Assembly: GCA_035276475.1 (NCBI GenBank)
Contig: DATELQ010000037.1
Location: 2,482-66,481 of the forward strand
Length of the DNA: 64,000 nt
Source of the DNA: Thermoanaerobaculia bacterium
GTDB lineage: Bacteria > Acidobacteriota > Thermoanaerobaculia > Gp7-AA8
Reading direction: 5' to 3'
Positions 4,236 to 20,224 of the stretch are shown one piece after another. Positions within the stretch are counted from its first letter, which is position 1, and every line of letters begins with the position of its first letter. The notes under the pieces are model-generated. The model searched no databases. It was not told the DNA's origin and saw nothing but the letters and a program-made list of their open reading frames with translations. A program made the translations under genes and the position numbers.

Positions 4236-4721
4236 ATGCGCGCCGCCGTCTATCCGGGCTCGTTCGATCCGCTGACGAACGGTCATCTCGACATCATCCG
4301 CCGCTGCTCGCGCCTCTTCGACCGCGTCATGGTGGCGCTGTTGGAGAACGAAGGAAAGTCTCCCCTCTTCACCATCCCCGAGCGCATCGAACTGATCGCT
4401 CGCTGCACCGCGGAGATGCCCAACGTCGAGGTGCATTCCTTCTCCGGCCTCCTCGTCGACTTCATGCGCCGCCACGACGCCACCGTCGTCGTGCGCGGCA
4501 TCCGGGCCGTGTCGGACTACGAGTACGAGCTGCAGATGGCGCTCATGAACCGCGAGCTCAACGCGCAGGTGGAGACGATCTTCATGCTTCCCGCGGTGGA
4601 GTACACGTACGTCTCCTCTCGCTTGATCAAAGAGGTCTTCCGCCTCGGCGGCGACGTCGGGCGTCTCGTCCCCGCACCGGTCCTCGAGTCGCTCAAGGCG
4701 CGGCTGCCGGTGACGGTCTAG
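4236..4721 (+). CDS. coaD: phosphopantetheine adenylyltransferase
   Basis: 161 aa beginning MRAAVYPGSFDPLTNGHLDII (T/HxGH nucleotidyltransferase motif); the longer track ORF 3333-4721 is an upstream read-through. Confidence 0.9.
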   Translation: MRAAVYPGSFDPLTNGHLDIIRRCSRLFDRVMVALLENEGKSPLFTIPERIELIARCTAEMPNVEVHSFSGLLVDFMRRHDATVVVRGIRAVSDYEYELQMALMNRELNAQVETIFMLPAVEYTYVSSRLIKEVFRLGGDVGRLVPAPVLESLKARLPVTV

Positions 4722-5584
4722 TCGCTGCGCGGATCCATGGCGTCGCGGAAGCGGTCGCCGATGATGTTGAAGGCGGCGACGGTGAGGAAGATGGCGACAC
4801 CGGGAAAGACCGCCAGCCACCACGCGTACTGGATGTGCTCCTCGGCGATCGAGAGGATGCTTCCCCACGACGCCGTCGGGATGGGAACGCCGAAGCCGAG
4901 GAACGAGAGCGCCGACTCGAACAGAATCGCCGAGGCCACGCCGAAGCTCGAGGAGACCAGCACCGGGGCGAGCGCGTTCGGGAGGAGATGCCGGAAGATC
5001 ACGCGCGCGTCGCGGGCGCCGATGGCGCGCGCGGCGTGGGCGAAGTCGAGGTCGCGGATGCGCAGGAGCTCCCCGCGCACGTAGCGCGCCTCCGTGGTCC
5101 ACGACGTCAGCCCCAGCGCGATCATGATCGTGTAGAGCGACGGCTTGAAGAGCGCCACGATGCCGAGGACGAGAAAGAGGAACGGGAAGCAGAGCAGGGT
5201 CTCGATGAGGCGGGAGACGATCCAGTCGGCCGCGCCGCCGTAGTAGCCGGCCAGCGCGCCGAGAATCGAGCCAACGATGAGCGAGATCGCCGTCGCCGTG
5301 AAGCCGACCGTGAGCGAGACCCGCGCGCCGTGGATCATACGCGCCAGCACGTCGCGCCCGAGGTCGTCGGTGCCGAAGCGGTGCTGTGCGGTCGGAGCCT
5401 CGAGGCGGTGCGCGAGGTCGACGTCGTTCGGCCCGAACGGCACCGGCGCCGAGGGCCCGGCGAGGAGCGGCGCAAAGAGCGCGATGACGGCCATCAGCAC
5501 GACGAAGACGAGCGCGATGACGGCCAGCTTGCTCCGGCGGAAGCGCAGCCAGGTCAGACCCCAGATCGACTCCCCTACCCTCAT
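4718..5584 (-). CDS. oligopeptide/dipeptide ABC transporter permease (DppC/OppC type)
   Basis: Start placed at internal MRVGESIWGLTW (residue 91 of track ORF), giving an ATGA overlap with the upstream permease; 6-TM permease with conserved EAA-like region. Confidence 0.85.
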   Translation of the reverse strand: MRVGESIWGLTWLRFRRSKLAVIALVFVVLMAVIALFAPLLAGPSAPVPFGPNDVDLAHRLEAPTAQHRFGTDDLGRDVLARMIHGARVSLTVGFTATAISLIVGSILGALAGYYGGAADWIVSRLIETLLCFPFLFLVLGIVALFKPSLYTIMIALGLTSWTTEARYVRGELLRIRDLDFAHAARAIGARDARVIFRHLLPNALAPVLVSSSFGVASAILFESALSFLGFGVPIPTASWGSILSIAEEHIQYAWWLAVFPGVAIFLTVAAFNIIGDRFRDAMDPRSD

Positions 5585-6561
5585 CGGGTGGCCTCGAGGC
5601 GGATGCGCGGGTCGGCGAACGCGTAGAGGATGTCGGCGAAGAGCGAGGCGAAGAGGGTGATGACCGCCGTCGTCACCGTGAGGCCGAGGATCATCGGGTA
5701 GTCGCGCTGCGACATCGAGTCGAAGTAGAGCCGGCCGATGCCGTCCCACTGAAAGATCGTCTCGACGATGACGCTGCCGGAGATGAGGTACGGAATCGTC
5801 AAACCGAGGAGCGTGATCAGCGGGATCAGCGCATTGCGGAATGCGTGACGCCACATGACCGCCGCTGGCGCCGCCCCCTTCGCGCGCGCCGTGGTGATGA
5901 AGTCCTGGCGGATCACCTCAATGAGCGCCGACTTCGAGTAGCGCGCGAAGATGGCCATCTGCGCGTACGTCAGCGTGACGACCGGAAGGATGAGATGGCG
6001 CACGCGGTCGAGGAGCTGCTGCGCCGCGTTCATCTGCAGATAGTCGTCCGAGGTCATGCCGAAGAGCGGGAGGACATTGAGCTTCACGGAGAAGAACTGC
6101 ATCAGCAGCAGGGCCACCCAGAAGCTCGGCAGCGAATAGAGAAGGAAGAAGCCGACGGCGGAGGCGCGCTCGGACAGGCGCCCCGAGCGCGTCGCGCTCC
6201 AGAGGCCGATCGGCACGCCGAGCATCGCGGCGATGAGGAACGCGATGAGGTTCAGGACGAAGGTATTCGGCATCTTCTCGGCGATGTGGGCCATGACGGG
6301 CTGCTCGTCGATGATCGACTTGCCGAAGTCGAGGGTGACGACGCCCTTCACCCACCACGCGTACTGCGCGACGATGGGCTGGTCGAGGTGATGCTCGTGG
6401 CGGATGTGCTGGACGATTGCGGCGGGCGGCCGTCCCTTGGGGCTCAGGAACAACAAGGTCGGATCGCCGGGCACGGCGTGGATGAGGGCGAACACCGCGA
6501 CCGTGATGCCGAAGAAGGTCAGCACCCCGTAGGCGCAACGGCGGATCAGGTACGAGAGCAC
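5581..6561 (-). CDS. oligopeptide/dipeptide ABC transporter permease (DppB/OppB type)
   Basis: 326 aa; MLSYLIRRCAYGVLTFFGITVAVFALIHAVPGDP is the canonical OppB/DppB N-terminus. Confidence 0.85.
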   Translation of the reverse strand: MLSYLIRRCAYGVLTFFGITVAVFALIHAVPGDPTLLFLSPKGRPPAAIVQHIRHEHHLDQPIVAQYAWWVKGVVTLDFGKSIIDEQPVMAHIAEKMPNTFVLNLIAFLIAAMLGVPIGLWSATRSGRLSERASAVGFFLLYSLPSFWVALLLMQFFSVKLNVLPLFGMTSDDYLQMNAAQQLLDRVRHLILPVVTLTYAQMAIFARYSKSALIEVIRQDFITTARAKGAAPAAVMWRHAFRNALIPLITLLGLTIPYLISGSVIVETIFQWDGIGRLYFDSMSQRDYPMILGLTVTTAVITLFASLFADILYAFADPRIRLEATR

Positions 6562-6565
6562 TGCG

Positions 6566-17928: not shown

Positions 17929-17978
17929 GCGGATTCCTCCTAAGACTCGCCTCATGTACGAAGTTCTGTTTGGATTGT

Positions 17979-19169
17979 TTAGACGGCTGGTGAGGCGGGA
18001 AGGATTGTATCCGACGGCACAGGATCTCCGGCGAAGTGGCACGCGGCGAATTGTCCGGGTTGATGCTCGATCAGCGCGGGCACCTGTTCGGCGCAGATCG
18101 GGAACTGCGCGATCGGACAGCGCGTGTGAAAAACGCAGCCGCTCGGAGGGTTGAGCGGCGTGGGGATGTCGCCCTTGAGCAGGATGCGCTGCTTGTGCGT
18201 GGCGGGGTCGGGCACCGGCACCGCCGAGAGGAGTGCCTTCGTGTACGGATGGAGCGGCTGCGCGTAGAGCGAGCGGCGATCGGCCAGCTCCATGATCTTG
18301 CCGAGGTACATGACCGCCACGCGCGTGGAGATGTGCTCGACGACGGAGAGGTCATGGGCGATGAAGAGGTAGGTCAGCCCGAGCTCGTCCTGCAGGTCCT
18401 GCAGAAGGTTGATGACCTGCGCCTGCACGGAGACGTCGAGCGCCGACACCGGCTCGTCGAGGACGAGGAACTTCGGGTTCGTCGCCAGCGCCCGGGCCAC
18501 GCCGATGCGCTGCCGCTGCCCGCCGGAGAACTCGTGCGGGTAGCGCTTGCGGTAGTCGGGGCTGAGGCCCACTTTCTCGAGGAGCTGGGCCACGCGGTCG
18601 CCGCGCGCGCTCCCGCTCATCCCGCCGTGGATGATCAGCGGCTCGCCGACGATCGTGCCGACGGTCATGCGCGGATTGAGCGACGCGTACGGGTCCTGAA
18701 AGACGATCTGCATGTTCCGCCGCATGCGCCGCATGTCGCCGGCGTGGAGGTCGAGGAGGTTCGTCCCTTCGAACTCGATCGAGCCGGCGGTCGGCTCGAT
18801 GAGGCGGAGGATGCAGCGCCCCACCGTCGTCTTCCCCGAGCCCGACTCGCCGACGAGGCCCAGGGTCTCGCCGCGGGAGACGCCGAAGCTGATGCCGTCG
18901 ACCGCTTTGACCTGCGCGACGACGCGCGAGAGCACGCCGCGGCGGACGGGAAAGTATTTCTGCAGATCGCGGACGATGAGGAGAGGCTCGGCCGCGCCCA
19001 TCGGGATCTTCGGCGTTTCCTGCGGCGCGCTTCGTTCGCGGAGGTTGTGCGGCTCCTTCACCACCGTGTCAGCGCGCGCGCTTTGGTCGGCCGGCGTCGG
19101 CAGGCCGCCGGAGATCGCCGGCGCGACGTCGCGGTCCCCGGGAACGAACGGTTTGTCGCGCTCCGTCAT
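17979..19169 (-). CDS. oligopeptide/dipeptide ABC transporter ATP-binding protein (OppF/DppF type)
   Basis: Walker [10 protein letters not shown], signature [16 protein letters not shown]-terminal oligopeptide-ABC extension with Cys residues; ATGA overlap with OppD-like gene. Confidence 0.85.
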
Positions 19170-20224
19170 CCGAGCCGCTCCGGGTCGGCTTGTTCGCCGT
19201 GAAGGTAGCAGCGCGCGTCGTGCTGCGGCCCCACCACCATCCGCGCCGGCTCGTTACCGAGGCAGATCGGCATGACGTCGGGGCAGCGCGGATTGAACTT
19301 GCAGCCGGGCGGCAGCGCGTAGATCGGCGGAACCATGCCCGAGATCGTCGGCAAGCGCTTGGCCGTGCCGTCGCCCGCGAGGCTCGGCAGCGACTTGAGC
19401 AACCCGCGCGTGTACGGGTGCGCCGGACTGGCGAAGAGGTCGCGCACCGGCGCCTCCTCGACGATGCGGCCGGTGTACATGACGATGATCCGCTCGCAGA
19501 ACTCGGCAACGACGCCGAGGTCGTGGGTGATGAGGAGAATGGCCAGGCCGAGGCGCTTTTGCAGCGAGGCCAGGAGCTCCATGATCTGCGCCTGAATCGT
19601 GACGTCGAGCGCGGTCGTGGGCTCGTCGGCGATGAGGAGCTCCGGATCGCACGACAGCGCCATGGCGATCATGACGCGCTGGCGCATGCCGCCGGAGAGC
19701 TGGTGCGGGTAGTCGTCGAGGCGCTTGATCGGATCGGGGATGGAGACGAGCTCCAGCATCTCCCCCGCCCGCTTCCGCGCCTCCCGCTTCGACAGTTTTT
19801 GATGGATGCGGATCGCCTCCGCGACCTGGTCGCCGATTTTGAAGACCGGGTTGAGCGACGTCATCGGCTCCTGGAAGACCATGGCCACGTCGTCGCCGCG
19901 GACGTCGCGCATCTCTTTCTCGCTCAGCTTGACGAGGTCGCGCCCCTTGAAGCGCACTTCCCCGCCGGTGATCCTGCCCGGCGGCGCGACGAGGCGCATG
20001 ATCGACATCGCCGTGACGCTCTTGCCGCAGCCCGACTCCCCCACCAGCGCGACCGCCTCCCCTTTGGCCACGTCGAAGGAGACGTTGTCGACCGCGTGCA
20101 CGACGCCGTCGCCGGTGAAAAAGGAGGTGCGCAGCTTGCGCACTTCGAGAAGCGCCCCGCCGGGCGGCGCCTCCGCATCGGCCACCGCCGCGCCGGACAT
20201 TCCGAGGGGCTGGTCGGACATCAA
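19166..20224 (-). CDS. oligopeptide/dipeptide ABC transporter ATP-binding protein (OppD/DppD type)
   Basis: Walker [11 protein letters not shown], signature [15 protein letters not shown], Walker [13 protein letters not shown]. Confidence 0.85.

Follow-up and report, generated by a model that had tools for sequence, protein, structure and literature searches.

In Bacillus subtilis, the MacB-type four-component exporter YknWXYZ is part of the core sigma-W regulon and provides resistance to the peptide toxin SDP (PMC3498285; PMC4887032). Predictions for three Acidobacteria genomes put leaderless genes in every one of them, at about 13% of genes on average (PMC3160421). Here we describe a run of twelve genes in a 64-kb window (the whole stretch of DNA analysed, 64,000 nucleotides) from a Thermoanaerobaculia bacterium. 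Within it, four genes share the W-X-Y-Z order and the separate ATPase and permease genes of Bacillus yknWXYZ, and differ from that system in being accompanied by a tolC gene. The balance of evidence tips toward an ancient, class-wide Thermoanaerobaculia neighbourhood of four separable modules, kept in fixed order and orientation and each with its own promoter.

Gene content and boundaries

Pfam and NCBIfam searches bore out the twelve minus-strand genes and identities proposed by the sequence-only reading, and its modular picture was right (Table 1). Scores exceeded the NCBIfam cut-offs for OppF (NF008453, 414 bits, cut-off 408) and the adaptor (TIGR01730, 157 bits, cut-off 95). The best models for OppD were DppD/OppD, with scores under the equivalog cut-offs; TolC scored under the TIGR01844 cut-off, Yip1 reached 95 bits (E 4e-27) against the 110 required by YknW_fam, and the pump ATPase aligned to the N-terminal half of the MacB model NF007826 (266 bits). 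The solute-binding protein (SBP) had Opp4A and NikA as its top models and missed every equivalog cut-off, so its substrate is not assignable; SBPs across loci have lipobox-like N-termini, and the protein is probably a lipoprotein.

Table 1. Features of the run and its flanks, in window coordinates.
Feature	Coordinates	Strand	Evidence or position
Gene next upstream of murJ	21862-23037	+	
murJ (lipid II flippase)	20261..21880	-	PF03023, E 4e-85
P1, extended -10 promoter-like motif TGC-TACGAT	20231..20239	-	6-9 nt 5' of oppD start, leaderless type
oppD-type ATPase	19166..20224	-	ABC_tran + oligo_HPY
oppF-type ATPase	17979..19169	-	ABC_tran + oligo_HPY
P2, ECF-sigma-type promoter-like motif TAAAC-N16-CGTA	17957..17981	-	~26 nt 5' of tolC ATG
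TolC-family outer-membrane channel, signal peptide	16219..17928	-	PF02321, two stretches
Yip1/YknW-like membrane protein	15479..16222	-	PF04893, E 9e-21
Membrane-fusion (periplasmic adaptor) protein (MFP), MacA/YknX-like	14259..15482	-	HlyD_D23 + HlyD_3
MacB/LolD/YknY-type ABC ATPase, separate polypeptide	13570..14262	-	ABC_tran
MacB/YknZ-type permease (periplasmic core domain + FtsX)	12337..13557	-	PF12704 E 4e-47, PF02687 E 1e-23
P3, promoter-like motif GAAAT-N19-GTTAGA-N6-GTG	12279..12317	-	abuts S55 start, leaderless
Secreted protein ~605 aa, S55 (SpoIVB-like) serine-peptidase domain	10464..12281	-	PF05580
Secreted beta-propeller protein, C-terminal Ig-like domains	8304..10454	-	AF2 model, Foldseek
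Long imperfect hairpin of AGTGCTG heptamers	8231..8300	.	dG -55.6 kcal/mol, z = -9.0 vs shuffles
P4, TATAAT -10 box	8222..8227	-	6 nt 5' of SBP GTG, leaderless
Family-5 SBP (peptide/nickel/opine class)	6566..8215	-	PF00496, E 6e-81
oppB-type permease	5581..6561	-	BPD_transp_1 + BPD_transp_1_N
oppC-type permease, run's last gene	4718..5584	-	BPD_transp_1 + OppC_N
coaD-like gene	4236..4721 (about)	+	converges on oppC; 3' boundary marker

The oppD/oppF and oppB/oppC junctions are ATGA overlaps, as is that between the tolC stop and yip1 once the yip1 start is corrected to ATG 16222, and the adaptor gene is joined to the preceding gene by a GTGA overlap. Tight coupling had been proposed for all seven central genes; it holds at five of the six internal junctions (overlap or gap of at most 12 nt) but not between the permease and S55 genes, which lie 55 nt apart with the S55 start at GTG 12281, the most likely position and the point from which the signal peptide runs. 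The start codons of the propeller gene, which is translationally coupled to S55, and of the SBP gene are ATG 10454 and GTG 8215, respectively. A tolC start at 18042 was rejected: ATG 17928 follows an AGGAGG ribosome-binding site, and with this start the OppF-TolC spacer is 50 nt.

Upstream, murJ is the same-strand neighbour of oppD in many loci; it has TATCTT 8 nt 5' of its GTG and is probably transcribed separately. At the other end, the plus-strand coaD-like gene, whose position is conserved in 37 loci, converges on oppC and so sets the end of the unit at 4718. Codon log-odds favour the plus strand for this frame (+51 vs -39), and its translation contains MRAAVYPGSFDPLTNGH, which we take to be a phosphopantetheine adenylyltransferase motif.

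The S55-related protein has a C-terminal region of unknown fold. In the native sequence the Ser-bearing half of the peptidase domain alone was matched (aa 54-140, 40 bits). A construct with the two halves re-joined covered PF05580 positions 14-201 at 49.9 bits, whereas the Ser half by itself and four controls scored 34.8-36.8 bits; judged by these profile matches, the domain is circularly permuted. The protease is probably active, because Ser113, Asp268 and His290 are invariant across 87 sequences with ~30% identity. In the AF2 model of its partner, both the propeller and the C-terminal domains have pLDDT values of 80-93, and Foldseek matched the model to 7/8-bladed propellers and to the periplasmic sensor domains BT4663/BT4673.

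Promoter-like motifs and the proposed modules

A simple sigma-70 scan of the region found no promoter because it demands a -35 box. Each of the four blocks is nevertheless preceded by a conserved promoter-like motif, suggesting that each has its own promoter; the predicted sigma-factor classes reflect resemblance to consensus sequences of other phyla, and the transcription start sites are predicted from the conserved motifs. Leaderless-type TAnnnT motifs occur in the window solely at the first genes of co-directional runs.

The first module would comprise the Opp/Dpp-class importer ATPases OppD-OppF, transcribed as a leaderless mRNA from a housekeeping-type extended -10 promoter (P1; TTGCTAC[GC]AT-N7-GTG in 11 of 16 loci). 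The second, tolC-yip1-MFP-ATPase-permease, is a candidate diderm, TolC-equipped version of YknWXYZ, which would be transcribed from an ECF-sigma-type promoter (GAAAC-N16-CGTA). The corresponding motif, P2, overlaps the oppF stop codon, and the pattern [GT]AAAC-N16-CGTA is present in 26 of 30 loci against a background rate of 0.005 per 230 nt, with GCAAC variants in the other four. Between oppF and tolC the window has no terminator-like hairpin, so transcription from the oppD promoter probably also runs on into the pump genes. The predicted substrates are toxic or amphipathic peptides, which the pump most likely expels from the periplasm or membrane during envelope stress. Known MacB substrates are small peptides and lipids, so export of the 60-75 kDa S55 or propeller protein through the MacB-TolC pump is unlikely.

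The third module would pair the circularly permuted SpoIVB-like serine protease with a propeller/Ig-like binding protein, both predicted to be periplasmic, and express them as a leaderless mRNA from a second ECF-like promoter. P3 resembles the ECF sigma-R/H type, and its pattern (GAAAT-N17-19-GTT-N7-10-[AG]TG) was found in 69 of 80 loci regardless of the upstream genes, with a background rate of 0.0006 per 220 nt.

The fourth module, SBP-OppB-OppC, would be set off by a long hairpin and read as a leaderless mRNA from a TATAAT promoter. The hairpin before the SBP gene is indeed built of heptamers (~4.4 AGTGCTG copies), but it is not perfect as first described: its 31-nt arms (8231-8261 and 8270-8300) pair at 28 of 31 positions (90%) around an 8-nt loop. 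In 40 of 52 loci the propeller-SBP junction has a stem of 12 bp or more, with hairpin sequences unrelated among loci, and the structure is probably a terminator or insulator. P4 is the sole TATAAT in the 64-kb window with both strands scanned; TATAAT or TATACT lies 6-9 nt (mostly 6-8) 5' of the SBP GTG in 49 of 58 loci, compared with 0/20 to 0/77 at six internal control genes. OppDF would most likely energise the OppBC permeases in trans.

Conservation and loss across genomes

A synteny comparison of related genomes found the order oppD-oppF / tolC-yip1-MFP-ATPase-permease / S55-propeller / SBP-oppB-oppC in the window and in 17 other Thermoanaerobaculia genomes. Identity across these 18 loci is 64-94% for S55, 52-91% for TolC and 32-84% for Yip1; the most diverged same-order loci fall to 64-77% for S55 and 32-40% for Yip1. 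SBP-OppBC is present in all 18 oppDF loci that extend far enough downstream. The most widely kept sub-block is S55-propeller-SBP-OppBC (~58 loci), and the propeller gene always follows S55 in the loci examined.

The modules can also be found apart. Around 21 genomes with S55-propeller lack oppDF at the locus, 16 of them keeping the SBP, and three loci (L013, L016, L075) have S55-propeller and no SBP. One nested subclade is without the oppDF-tolC-pump half and sometimes without the Opp genes, a loss placed by a midpoint-rooted neighbour-joining tree built from a single protein; the place upstream of S55 is taken there by another MacB-type module together with a sigma-54 two-component system, or by other genes. 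OppDF genes were not located in the genomes without the upstream half. S55-propeller pairs that lack Opp or MacB genes were seen in other Acidobacteriota and in Glassbacteria; in distant Acidobacteriota the pair stands alone beside smc, and on this distribution of homologues it is phylum-wide.

These patterns are consistent with modules that would be separately regulated and able to exist apart. A functional link among them is possible: all would act on envelope peptides, and they may cooperate loosely in breaking down proteins in the periplasm and in taking up and expelling peptides. A long-conserved co-directional run of twelve genes is usually read as functional coupling, so treating the modules as independent may understate their cooperation.

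Alternative readings of the run

A tighter form of such coupling would make the whole run a "protein utilisation locus", in which proteins or polypeptides are broken down by S55 and the propeller protein, either periplasmically or on the cell surface, the products are taken up through OppBCDF with the lipoprotein SBP, and the YknWXYZ-TolC pump clears harmful by-product peptides. The depth at which gene order is kept, the wide retention of S55-propeller-SBP-OppBC, the probably active protease and three S9 oligopeptidase genes within 38 kb in the window annotation all fit this idea. The oppDF and pump genes also lie in one co-directional run, with no terminator-like hairpin between them in the window. 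We nevertheless regard a single harvesting unit as unlikely, given four predicted promoters of different classes, S55-propeller pairs without Opp or MacB genes or without an SBP, a subclade that lost the pump half, and an SBP of unassignable substrate.

A signalling role is more doubtful still. SpoIVB, to which S55 is homologous, is a checkpoint signalling protease; S55 could likewise act in signalling as a site-1 protease, the propeller/Ig protein serving as the periplasmic sensor. The two would control an ECF sigma/anti-sigma pair, and that sigma would act on the ECF-type promoters of S55 itself and of the adjacent tolC-yknWXYZ exporter. In keeping with this, the propeller architecture is like that of periplasmic sensor domains of Bacteroides hybrid two-component systems, with faint "Reg_prop" matches; ECF-type motifs lie 5' of both tolC and S55; and in L082 and L084 genes for an ECF sigma and a zf-HC2 anti-sigma come directly after the propeller gene, where L078 has an ECF sigma fragment. 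However, the pair is absent from this position in four of seven distant loci, which count as a single event because all belong to one synteny block, and the 64-kb window has no ECF sigma gene. Acidobacteria are expected to carry many ECF sigma genes, which makes a chance neighbour plausible, and the difference between P2 and P3 implies two sigma factors.

It is comparably improbable that OppDF is not the partner of SBP-OppBC but serves another importer, or several, and lies beside tolC incidentally. Its own predicted promoter, its absence from many S55-propeller loci that keep the SBP, and the insertions (families f30 and f52) tolerated at the oppF-tolC junction in several loci would suit this arrangement. 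Against it, every sufficiently long oppDF locus also has SBP-OppBC, the 64-kb window has no further Opp-type permease or SBP gene, and both blocks have putative housekeeping-type leaderless promoters, which the middle blocks do not.

Hardly credible is a recent event in which a mobile efflux-plus-protease cassette entered a previously intact oppDF-ABC operon, here or in close relatives of this genome. The sequence-only reading raised an insertion into such an operon, and the ~10 kb between the importer's ATPase and SBP/permease genes and the repeat-built hairpin at one border would fit it. Against it, 17 other genomes share the interleaved order, at S55 identities as low as 64%, a conserved promoter-like motif precedes each block, GC content is even (0.63-0.70) and neither it nor GC skew steps at the supposed borders, Pfam/NCBIfam gene content within or beside 4.7-20.2 kb includes no integrase or transposase and no flanking direct repeats were found there, and the hairpin position is common to loci with unrelated hairpin sequences. 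Nor is an insertion between DF and ABC the most economical history, because basal lineages have S55-propeller-SBP-OppBC with OppDF not nearby; in the basal loci L068-L070, genes for EnvC, an S41 peptidase and YibQ lie upstream of S55 instead.

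Gene run and its order in related genomes

ORF listing together with Pfam and NCBIfam scans bore out the twelve co-directional minus-strand genes and the identities given to them by the sequence-only reading: the ATPase genes oppD and oppF; a pump made of TolC, a Yip1 protein, a membrane-fusion protein (MFP, the adaptor), an ABC ATPase and a MacB-type permease; a secreted protein with a SpoIVB-like serine-peptidase domain (S55); a secreted beta-propeller protein; and a family-5 solute-binding protein (SBP) with the permeases OppB and OppC. The propeller protein is 100% identical to a database entry, which together with the names of close S55 homologues assigns the window to an uncultured Thermoanaerobaculia bacterium of the Acidobacteriota. 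The window has a G+C content of ~67% and served as training sequence for a gene caller scoring codon log-odds, with which the boundaries of the run were set. A coaD-like gene on the plus strand converges on oppC, and so the run stops at 4718. The minus-strand ORF 4203-5102 was rejected by codon log-odds as a shadow of this coaD-like gene, and the minus-strand ORFs 3793-4206, 21868-23091 and 22884-24299 were also set aside as shadows of plus-strand or other-frame genes. The largest gaps between genes of the run (50-76 nt) leave room for no precursor-peptide ORF, and the Rfam search placed no RNA family in the region, its sole match being a tRNA at 41845-41930.

Coordinates of genes and start sites in the window, and of sigma factor genes in loci of the distant acidobacterial branch
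Feature	Position	Strand	Basis or remark
OppD	19166-20224	minus	Pfam/NCBIfam
OppF	17979-19169	minus	Pfam/NCBIfam
tolC start	ATG 17928	minus	preceded by AGGAGG; 50 nt from oppF (junction inspection)
yip1 start	ATG 16222	minus	ATGA overlap (junction inspection)
S55 start	GTG 12281	minus	signal-peptide onset; 55 nt from permease gene
propeller gene start	ATG 10454	minus	junction inspection
SBP gene start	GTG 8215	minus	junction inspection
murJ	20261-21880	minus	same-strand upstream neighbour
gene upstream of murJ	21862-23037	plus	codon log-odds gene calling
coaD-like gene	about 4236-4721	plus	converges on oppC
ECF sigma and zf-HC2 anti-sigma genes	L082 14141-15633	opposite to pair	distant branch
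ECF sigma and zf-HC2 anti-sigma genes	L084 12074-13431	opposite to pair	distant branch
ECF sigma fragment only	L078	opposite to pair	distant branch

A scan with an S55 alignment, taking one genome per species, yielded 80 loci, nearly all from metagenome-assembled Thermoanaerobaculia, and their neighbourhoods were compared by tblastn with the window proteins, then by gene calling and clustering. The full order murJ-oppD-oppF-tolC-yip1-MFP-ATPase-permease-S55-propeller-SBP-oppB-oppC-coaD, with coaD on the opposite strand, recurs widely: oppDF and the SBP gene are both present in this order in 18 loci, the window counted, where identities are mostly only 64-77% for S55, 52-66% for TolC and 32-40% for Yip1. 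These full-order loci spread through the main clade of a neighbour-joining tree of S55. One nested subclade of that tree lacks oppDF-tolC-pump and has upstream of S55 either a different MacB-type module or unrelated genes, and some of its members additionally lack OppBC or the SBP. Alongside a sigma-54 response regulator and a histidine kinase, the alternative module comprises an adaptor, an ATPase and two MacB_PCD+FtsX permeases, and a canonical sigma-54 promoter (TGGCAC-N5-TTGC) precedes its adaptor gene (family f34) in loci L013, L016 and L033 (about 2320-2352 in L033).

Basal loci (L068-L070) have S55-propeller-SBP-OppB, and the genes upstream in L069 and L070 encode an EnvC-like M23 peptidase, an S41 peptidase and YibQ. 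One genome of Glassbacteria and one from a distant part of the Acidobacteriota supply the outgroup loci, which retain S55-propeller alone. Along a distant acidobacterial branch the pair stands by itself, divergent from smc, in six further loci (seven with outgroup locus L078), and no MacB or Opp genes lie beside it there. The arrangement is ancient, and its oldest unit is the S55-propeller pair. The interleaving of pump and protease genes with the two Opp halves is not peculiar to the window, being shared by the 18 loci, and it does not hold throughout, the nested subclade being without oppDF-tolC-pump. Where the sequence-only reading had proposed to test co-occurrence of protease, propeller and MacAB-TolC-Yip1, S55 and propeller do stay together, and MacB and Opp genes are absent beside the pair in the distant branch.

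Promoter-like motifs and intergenic hairpins

Distance-based predictors would call twelve co-directional, closely spaced genes one operon. Lining up the corresponding junctions across loci instead uncovered four conserved promoter-like motifs, before oppD (P1), tolC (P2), S55 (P3) and the SBP gene (P4), which point to four candidate transcription units with two promoter classes. P4 is TATAAT or TATACT in 49/58 loci, separated from a GTG or ATG start by 6-9 nt (6-8 in most), with CATAAT at that position in four more, and the start codon behind it opens a lipoprotein-type signal peptide. Control genes gave no match in the same test (tolC 0/29, yip1 0/31, adaptor 0/26, ATPase 0/42, propeller 0/77, oppC 0/20), and P4 is the sole TATAAT on either strand of the 64-kb window. 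P1 reads TTGC-TAC(G/C)AT, N7, GTG in 11 of 16 loci and is an extended -10 motif; a sigma-54 site (TGACAC-N5-TTGC) was rejected here because the invariant GG is missing and the extended -10 pattern (TGnTAnnAT) fits better.

The other two motifs are of ECF type, pairing a conserved 'AAC' -35 with a 'CGT' or 'GTT' -10 at 16-19 nt, far above background. P2, GAAAC-N16-CGTA about 24 nt before the tolC ATG, occurs in 26/30 loci (GCAAC in the other four; background 0.005 per 230 nt) and is also kept at loci without oppDF upstream. We take it to be close to the ECF sigma AAC...CGT signature and to the B. subtilis sigma-W consensus TGAAAC-N16-CGTA, the latter being the consensus of another phylum. P3, GAAAT-N17-19-GTTA followed after about 6 nt by the S55 GTG, is found in 69 of the 80 loci irrespective of the upstream genes (background 0.0006 per 220 nt), and is similar to the sigma-R/sigma-H type GGAAT-N18-GTT. 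The window itself contains no ECF sigma gene. A (T)GGCAC element, set 5-6 nt before the CGAAAT box at P3, is conserved in many loci of arrangement A (12318-12336 in the window; cTGGCACgccctaCGAAAT in locus L020) and may be a regulator-binding site; its spacing does not fit a sigma-54 element.

A built-in sigma-70 promoter scan of 3.5-23 kb gave zero matches, because the scan requires a -35 box, and a built-in terminator scan remained at background level (14 found vs 9.9 expected). TAnnnT boxes at leaderless distance occur in the window only at genes opening a co-directional run, and, the SBP gene at 8215 apart, no gene inside the twelve-gene run has one. Such boxes lie 6-9 nt before starts, often GTG, at 37, 3766, 8215, 20224, 21880, 27587, 37566, 57184, 61902, 61921 and 63485. 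From their placement at run-opening genes, leaderless mRNAs seem common in this organism; a published survey predicted leaderless genes at about 13% in Acidobacteria (PMC3160421). Runs of this kind can be split, in high-GC bacteria with leaderless mRNAs, at -10 boxes that are conserved immediately ahead of start codons. The best-supported assignment gives the two Opp halves predicted housekeeping-type leaderless promoters, and the exporter and the protease pair predicted ECF-like promoters.

The hairpin between the propeller and SBP genes, described as a perfect heptamer hairpin by the sequence-only reading, is real and imperfect: at 8231-8300, AGTGCTG heptamers form 31-nt arms, 90% complementary, around an 8-nt loop, with a folding energy of -55.6 kcal/mol (z = -9 vs shuffles). 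Of 52 loci, 40 have a stem of 12 bp or more in this spacer and 28 one of 20 bp or more; tandem repeats of 7-8 nt often make up these stems, whose sequences are unrelated among loci, and this fits a putative terminator or insulator. Since no comparable hairpin is present in the oppF-tolC spacer of the window, transcription from P1 likely reads through into the pump genes. That spacer is also where family f30 (about 345 aa), sometimes with family f52, is inserted in five loci (L050, L051, L053, L058 and L076). We read f30 as metallo-beta-lactamase-fold-like, and Pfam returned no match for it. The tolC promoter motif remains downstream of the insertion, which makes the oppF-tolC junction a soft module boundary.

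Long near-perfect intergenic hairpins with arms of tandem 7-8-nt repeats were also seen in the window at 1676-1754 and 57261-57342, besides 8231-8300, and repeat-built hairpins occupy the propeller-SBP spacer of loci L003, L004, L008, L014, L017, L018, L022, L023, L026, L047, L053, L056, L062 and L072. Examples of the repeat units are AGTGCTG, GTTCGAA, GCGAAGAC and GTTCCTCG. From genome to genome, the hairpin at the orthologous propeller-SBP junction keeps its structure but changes its repeat sequence, which suggests repeated local origin or turnover of these terminator-like elements without a U tract.

The permuted S55 protease and its propeller partner

The native S55 protein aligns to SpoIVB (structure 9lnf) over the Ser-bearing barrel only, where its GMSGSP matches GM(S378A)GAP and the Asp363-equivalent position is also aligned. 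The order in SpoIVB is His236...Ser378 (PMC12502668). The S55 protein has no His barrel N-terminal to its Ser barrel, the signal peptide alone preceding the Ser half, and its His-bearing half (FGHPF, His290) lies downstream, about 150 residues after the Ser half. Ser113 (GMSGSP), Asp268 and His290 are invariant in 87 members at about 30% identity. When the halves were re-joined with residues 254-353 before 51-150, the construct scored 49.9 bits against PF05580 (positions 14-201 of the profile), compared with 36.8 bits for the Ser half by itself and 34.8-36.5 bits for four control constructs with shuffled, reversed or unrelated first halves. This gain over the Ser half and the controls indicates, at the level of sequence profiles, a domain circularly permuted relative to SpoIVB. 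Taken alone, the His-containing segment did not match S55 in Pfam, and a profile of 87 diverse relatives searched against the PDB matched the Ser half of SpoIVB only, with an extra stretch, co-linear with the permutation, that was non-significant.

Likeness to SpoIVB (MEROPS S55) therefore consists of the aligned Ser barrel and a His half that is recognised once the halves are re-joined. The S55 protein differs from SpoIVB in its permutation, in a PDZ domain not being detected (no Pfam family match at E up to 10), in a C-terminal region of about 280 aa without detectable relatives, and in always being paired with the propeller protein. It scores 31.8 bits against the SpoIVB equivalog TIGR02860, for which the cut-off is 305. 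SpoIVB is a signalling protease of sporulation, and the organism is not known to sporulate. An AF2 model of the S55 protein, made from 45 close homologues, had a mean pLDDT of 45 and was too poor to use, and a full-text literature search for S55-like proteins outside sporulation returned nothing relevant. The family of full-length S55 proteins is very large, secreted and uncharacterised: an exhaustive search recovered 6768 clusters at 50% identity with E <=0.001, and 2256 with E <=1e-30.

Among the loci examined, the propeller gene follows S55 wherever downstream sequence is available. The AF2 model of its product is confident, showing a 7/8-bladed propeller with C-terminal Ig-like domains. 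Foldseek against the PDB matched only generic propellers and the sensor domains of Bacteroides hybrid two-component systems, and relatives have faint Reg_prop matches. The periplasmic sensor domains of BT4663/BT4673 share the propeller and C-terminal Ig-like domain (Foldseek E about 1e-9). In contrast to them, the propeller protein lacks both a transmembrane and a kinase part; TM-scores over the whole are low (about 0.2) and identity is 10-12%. The likeness of the model to these sensors may be one of generic propeller fold only. Both S55 and propeller proteins have signal peptides. At 60-75 kDa they are unlikely cargo of a MacB-TolC pump, given known MacB substrates, and thus the periplasm is their probable site of action. 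A new element of this region, as predicted from sequence, is the family of permuted S55 proteases together with its apparently obligatory propeller partner. Because the two are so strictly paired, the family offers a tractable target in a phylum of which few members have been cultured.

The two transporters and the relation among modules

The pump has the four gene types and the order of YknWXYZ of B. subtilis and B. amyloliquefaciens, a Bacillus exporter of four components that gives protection from the peptide toxin SDP (PMC4887032) and belongs to the core sigma-W regulon (PMC3498285). This W-X-Y-Z order (Yip1, MFP, separate ATPase, MacB-type permease) is kept in about 30 loci and, as in Bacillus, is preceded by an ECF-type motif, here a promoter-like one. 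Unlike YknWXYZ, the pump opens with a TolC-family gene, as expected for a diderm, no sdp-like toxin genes were seen with it, and the window's Yip1 protein falls below the YknW equivalog cut-off (95 vs 110 bits, E 4e-27), although it passes that of PF04893 (75 bits). In Bacillus, YknWXYZ is known to be tied to an ECF sigma factor, and as far as motifs can tell the same tie appears here in a diderm with TolC added.

All tripartite parts are present (a PF12704 + PF02687 permease, an HlyD_D23 adaptor and a PF02321 channel). The same types of part occur in E. coli MacAB-TolC: an adaptor, a TolC-family channel and a permease of MacB type that has a periplasmic core domain. Known pumps of the MacB type carry small peptides out of the periplasm, enterotoxin STII being an example. 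E. coli MacB is a fusion, whereas ATPase and permease are separate polypeptides in the window, where the pump also adds the Yip1 component and tolC is encoded within the unit. NCBIfam equivalogs were missed throughout: MacB with 263 and 266 bits vs 966, MacA with 122 vs 342 and TolC with 26 vs 495.

The importer has all five component types of oppABCDF with their diagnostic domains: SBP_bac_5 (PF00496, E 6e-81, 273 bits) in the SBP, BPD_transp_1 with BPD_transp_1_N in the OppB-type and with OppC_N in the OppC-type permease, and oligo_HPY (PF08352, E 2e-19 and 3e-17) in both ATPases. It differs from oppABCDF in its order, DF...ABC instead of ABCDF, in a lipoprotein-like SBP, and in its halves lying about 9.8-10 kb apart, with 7 genes between them, as separate predicted transcription units. 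The genes do not make up one contiguous five-gene opp operon, a conserved hairpin and separate promoter-like motifs intervening. SBP scores do not separate the peptide, nickel and opine classes of substrate (best NCBIfam matches Opp4A, 178 bits vs 650, and NikA, 161 vs 393, with every equivalog cut-off missed), and a peptide is the likely substrate. OppDF most likely energises the downstream OppBC, because the SBP is present in 18/18 oppDF loci reaching far enough downstream and because the window holds no other Opp permease gene.

These motifs and gene orders are best read as an ancient neighbourhood in which four separable modules, each with a predicted promoter of its own, stand in a fixed order. 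Because each of the four deals with peptides at the envelope, they may plausibly cooperate in a loose way, though in other lineages the modules are found apart. A fully integrated peptide-harvesting unit goes further and is rather improbable. We give still less credence to S55-propeller as an Acidobacteriota-wide envelope-signalling device, in which the protease, SpoIVB-like and circularly permuted, would act with a sensor-like propeller to cleave an anti-sigma factor or other regulator. Cleavage would turn on ECF-type promoters, including S55's own and that of the adjacent TolC-YknWXYZ exporter, and the neighbouring Opp importer would take up signal or product peptides. An ECF sigma gene does adjoin the 3' end of the pair, on the opposite strand, in 3 of the 7 distant loci, but the distant-branch loci share one synteny block. 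An ApbE cluster takes the position of the ECF sigma gene after the pair in sister loci. Recent insertion of the cassette is effectively excluded, given the interleaved order in 18 loci, S55 identities of 64-77% and the lack of a step in GC content at either border of the proposed seven-gene insert. Insertion into an opp operon, one of the histories offered by the sequence-only reading, is not the simplest one, as basal lineages already have S55-propeller-SBP-OppBC without OppDF nearby.

The split-operon framing is largely explained away by the four-module neighbourhood. As transporters, the importer and the pump are ordinary representatives of known kinds, and none of these findings overturns known biology; what appears to be new is the conserved modular arrangement with its promoter-like architecture. 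The region yields regulatory predictions that can be tested and a pair of uncharacterised proteins found across the phylum.

Elsewhere in the window, three genes for S9-family (prolyl-oligopeptidase type) peptidases lie within 38 kb (1757-3766, 25515-27587 and 35596-37566), surrounding a housekeeping stretch with MutS2, dnaG and rpoD; the first adjoins the locus solely in the closest relatives, L001 and L002. A tandem array at 50434-50650 has five 43-nt copies with 91% matches and an internal 21-nt sub-period, and sits in a region of weak coding signal. Of two large Ser/Thr protein kinase genes, at 37998-40763 and 57271-59802, one has HAMP and dCache domains and the other TPR repeats. A PASTA/TPR protein is encoded beside a CHASE2 protein at 43137-46691, in a stretch where GC3 is lower, at 0.74-0.76 vs about 0.9 elsewhere.
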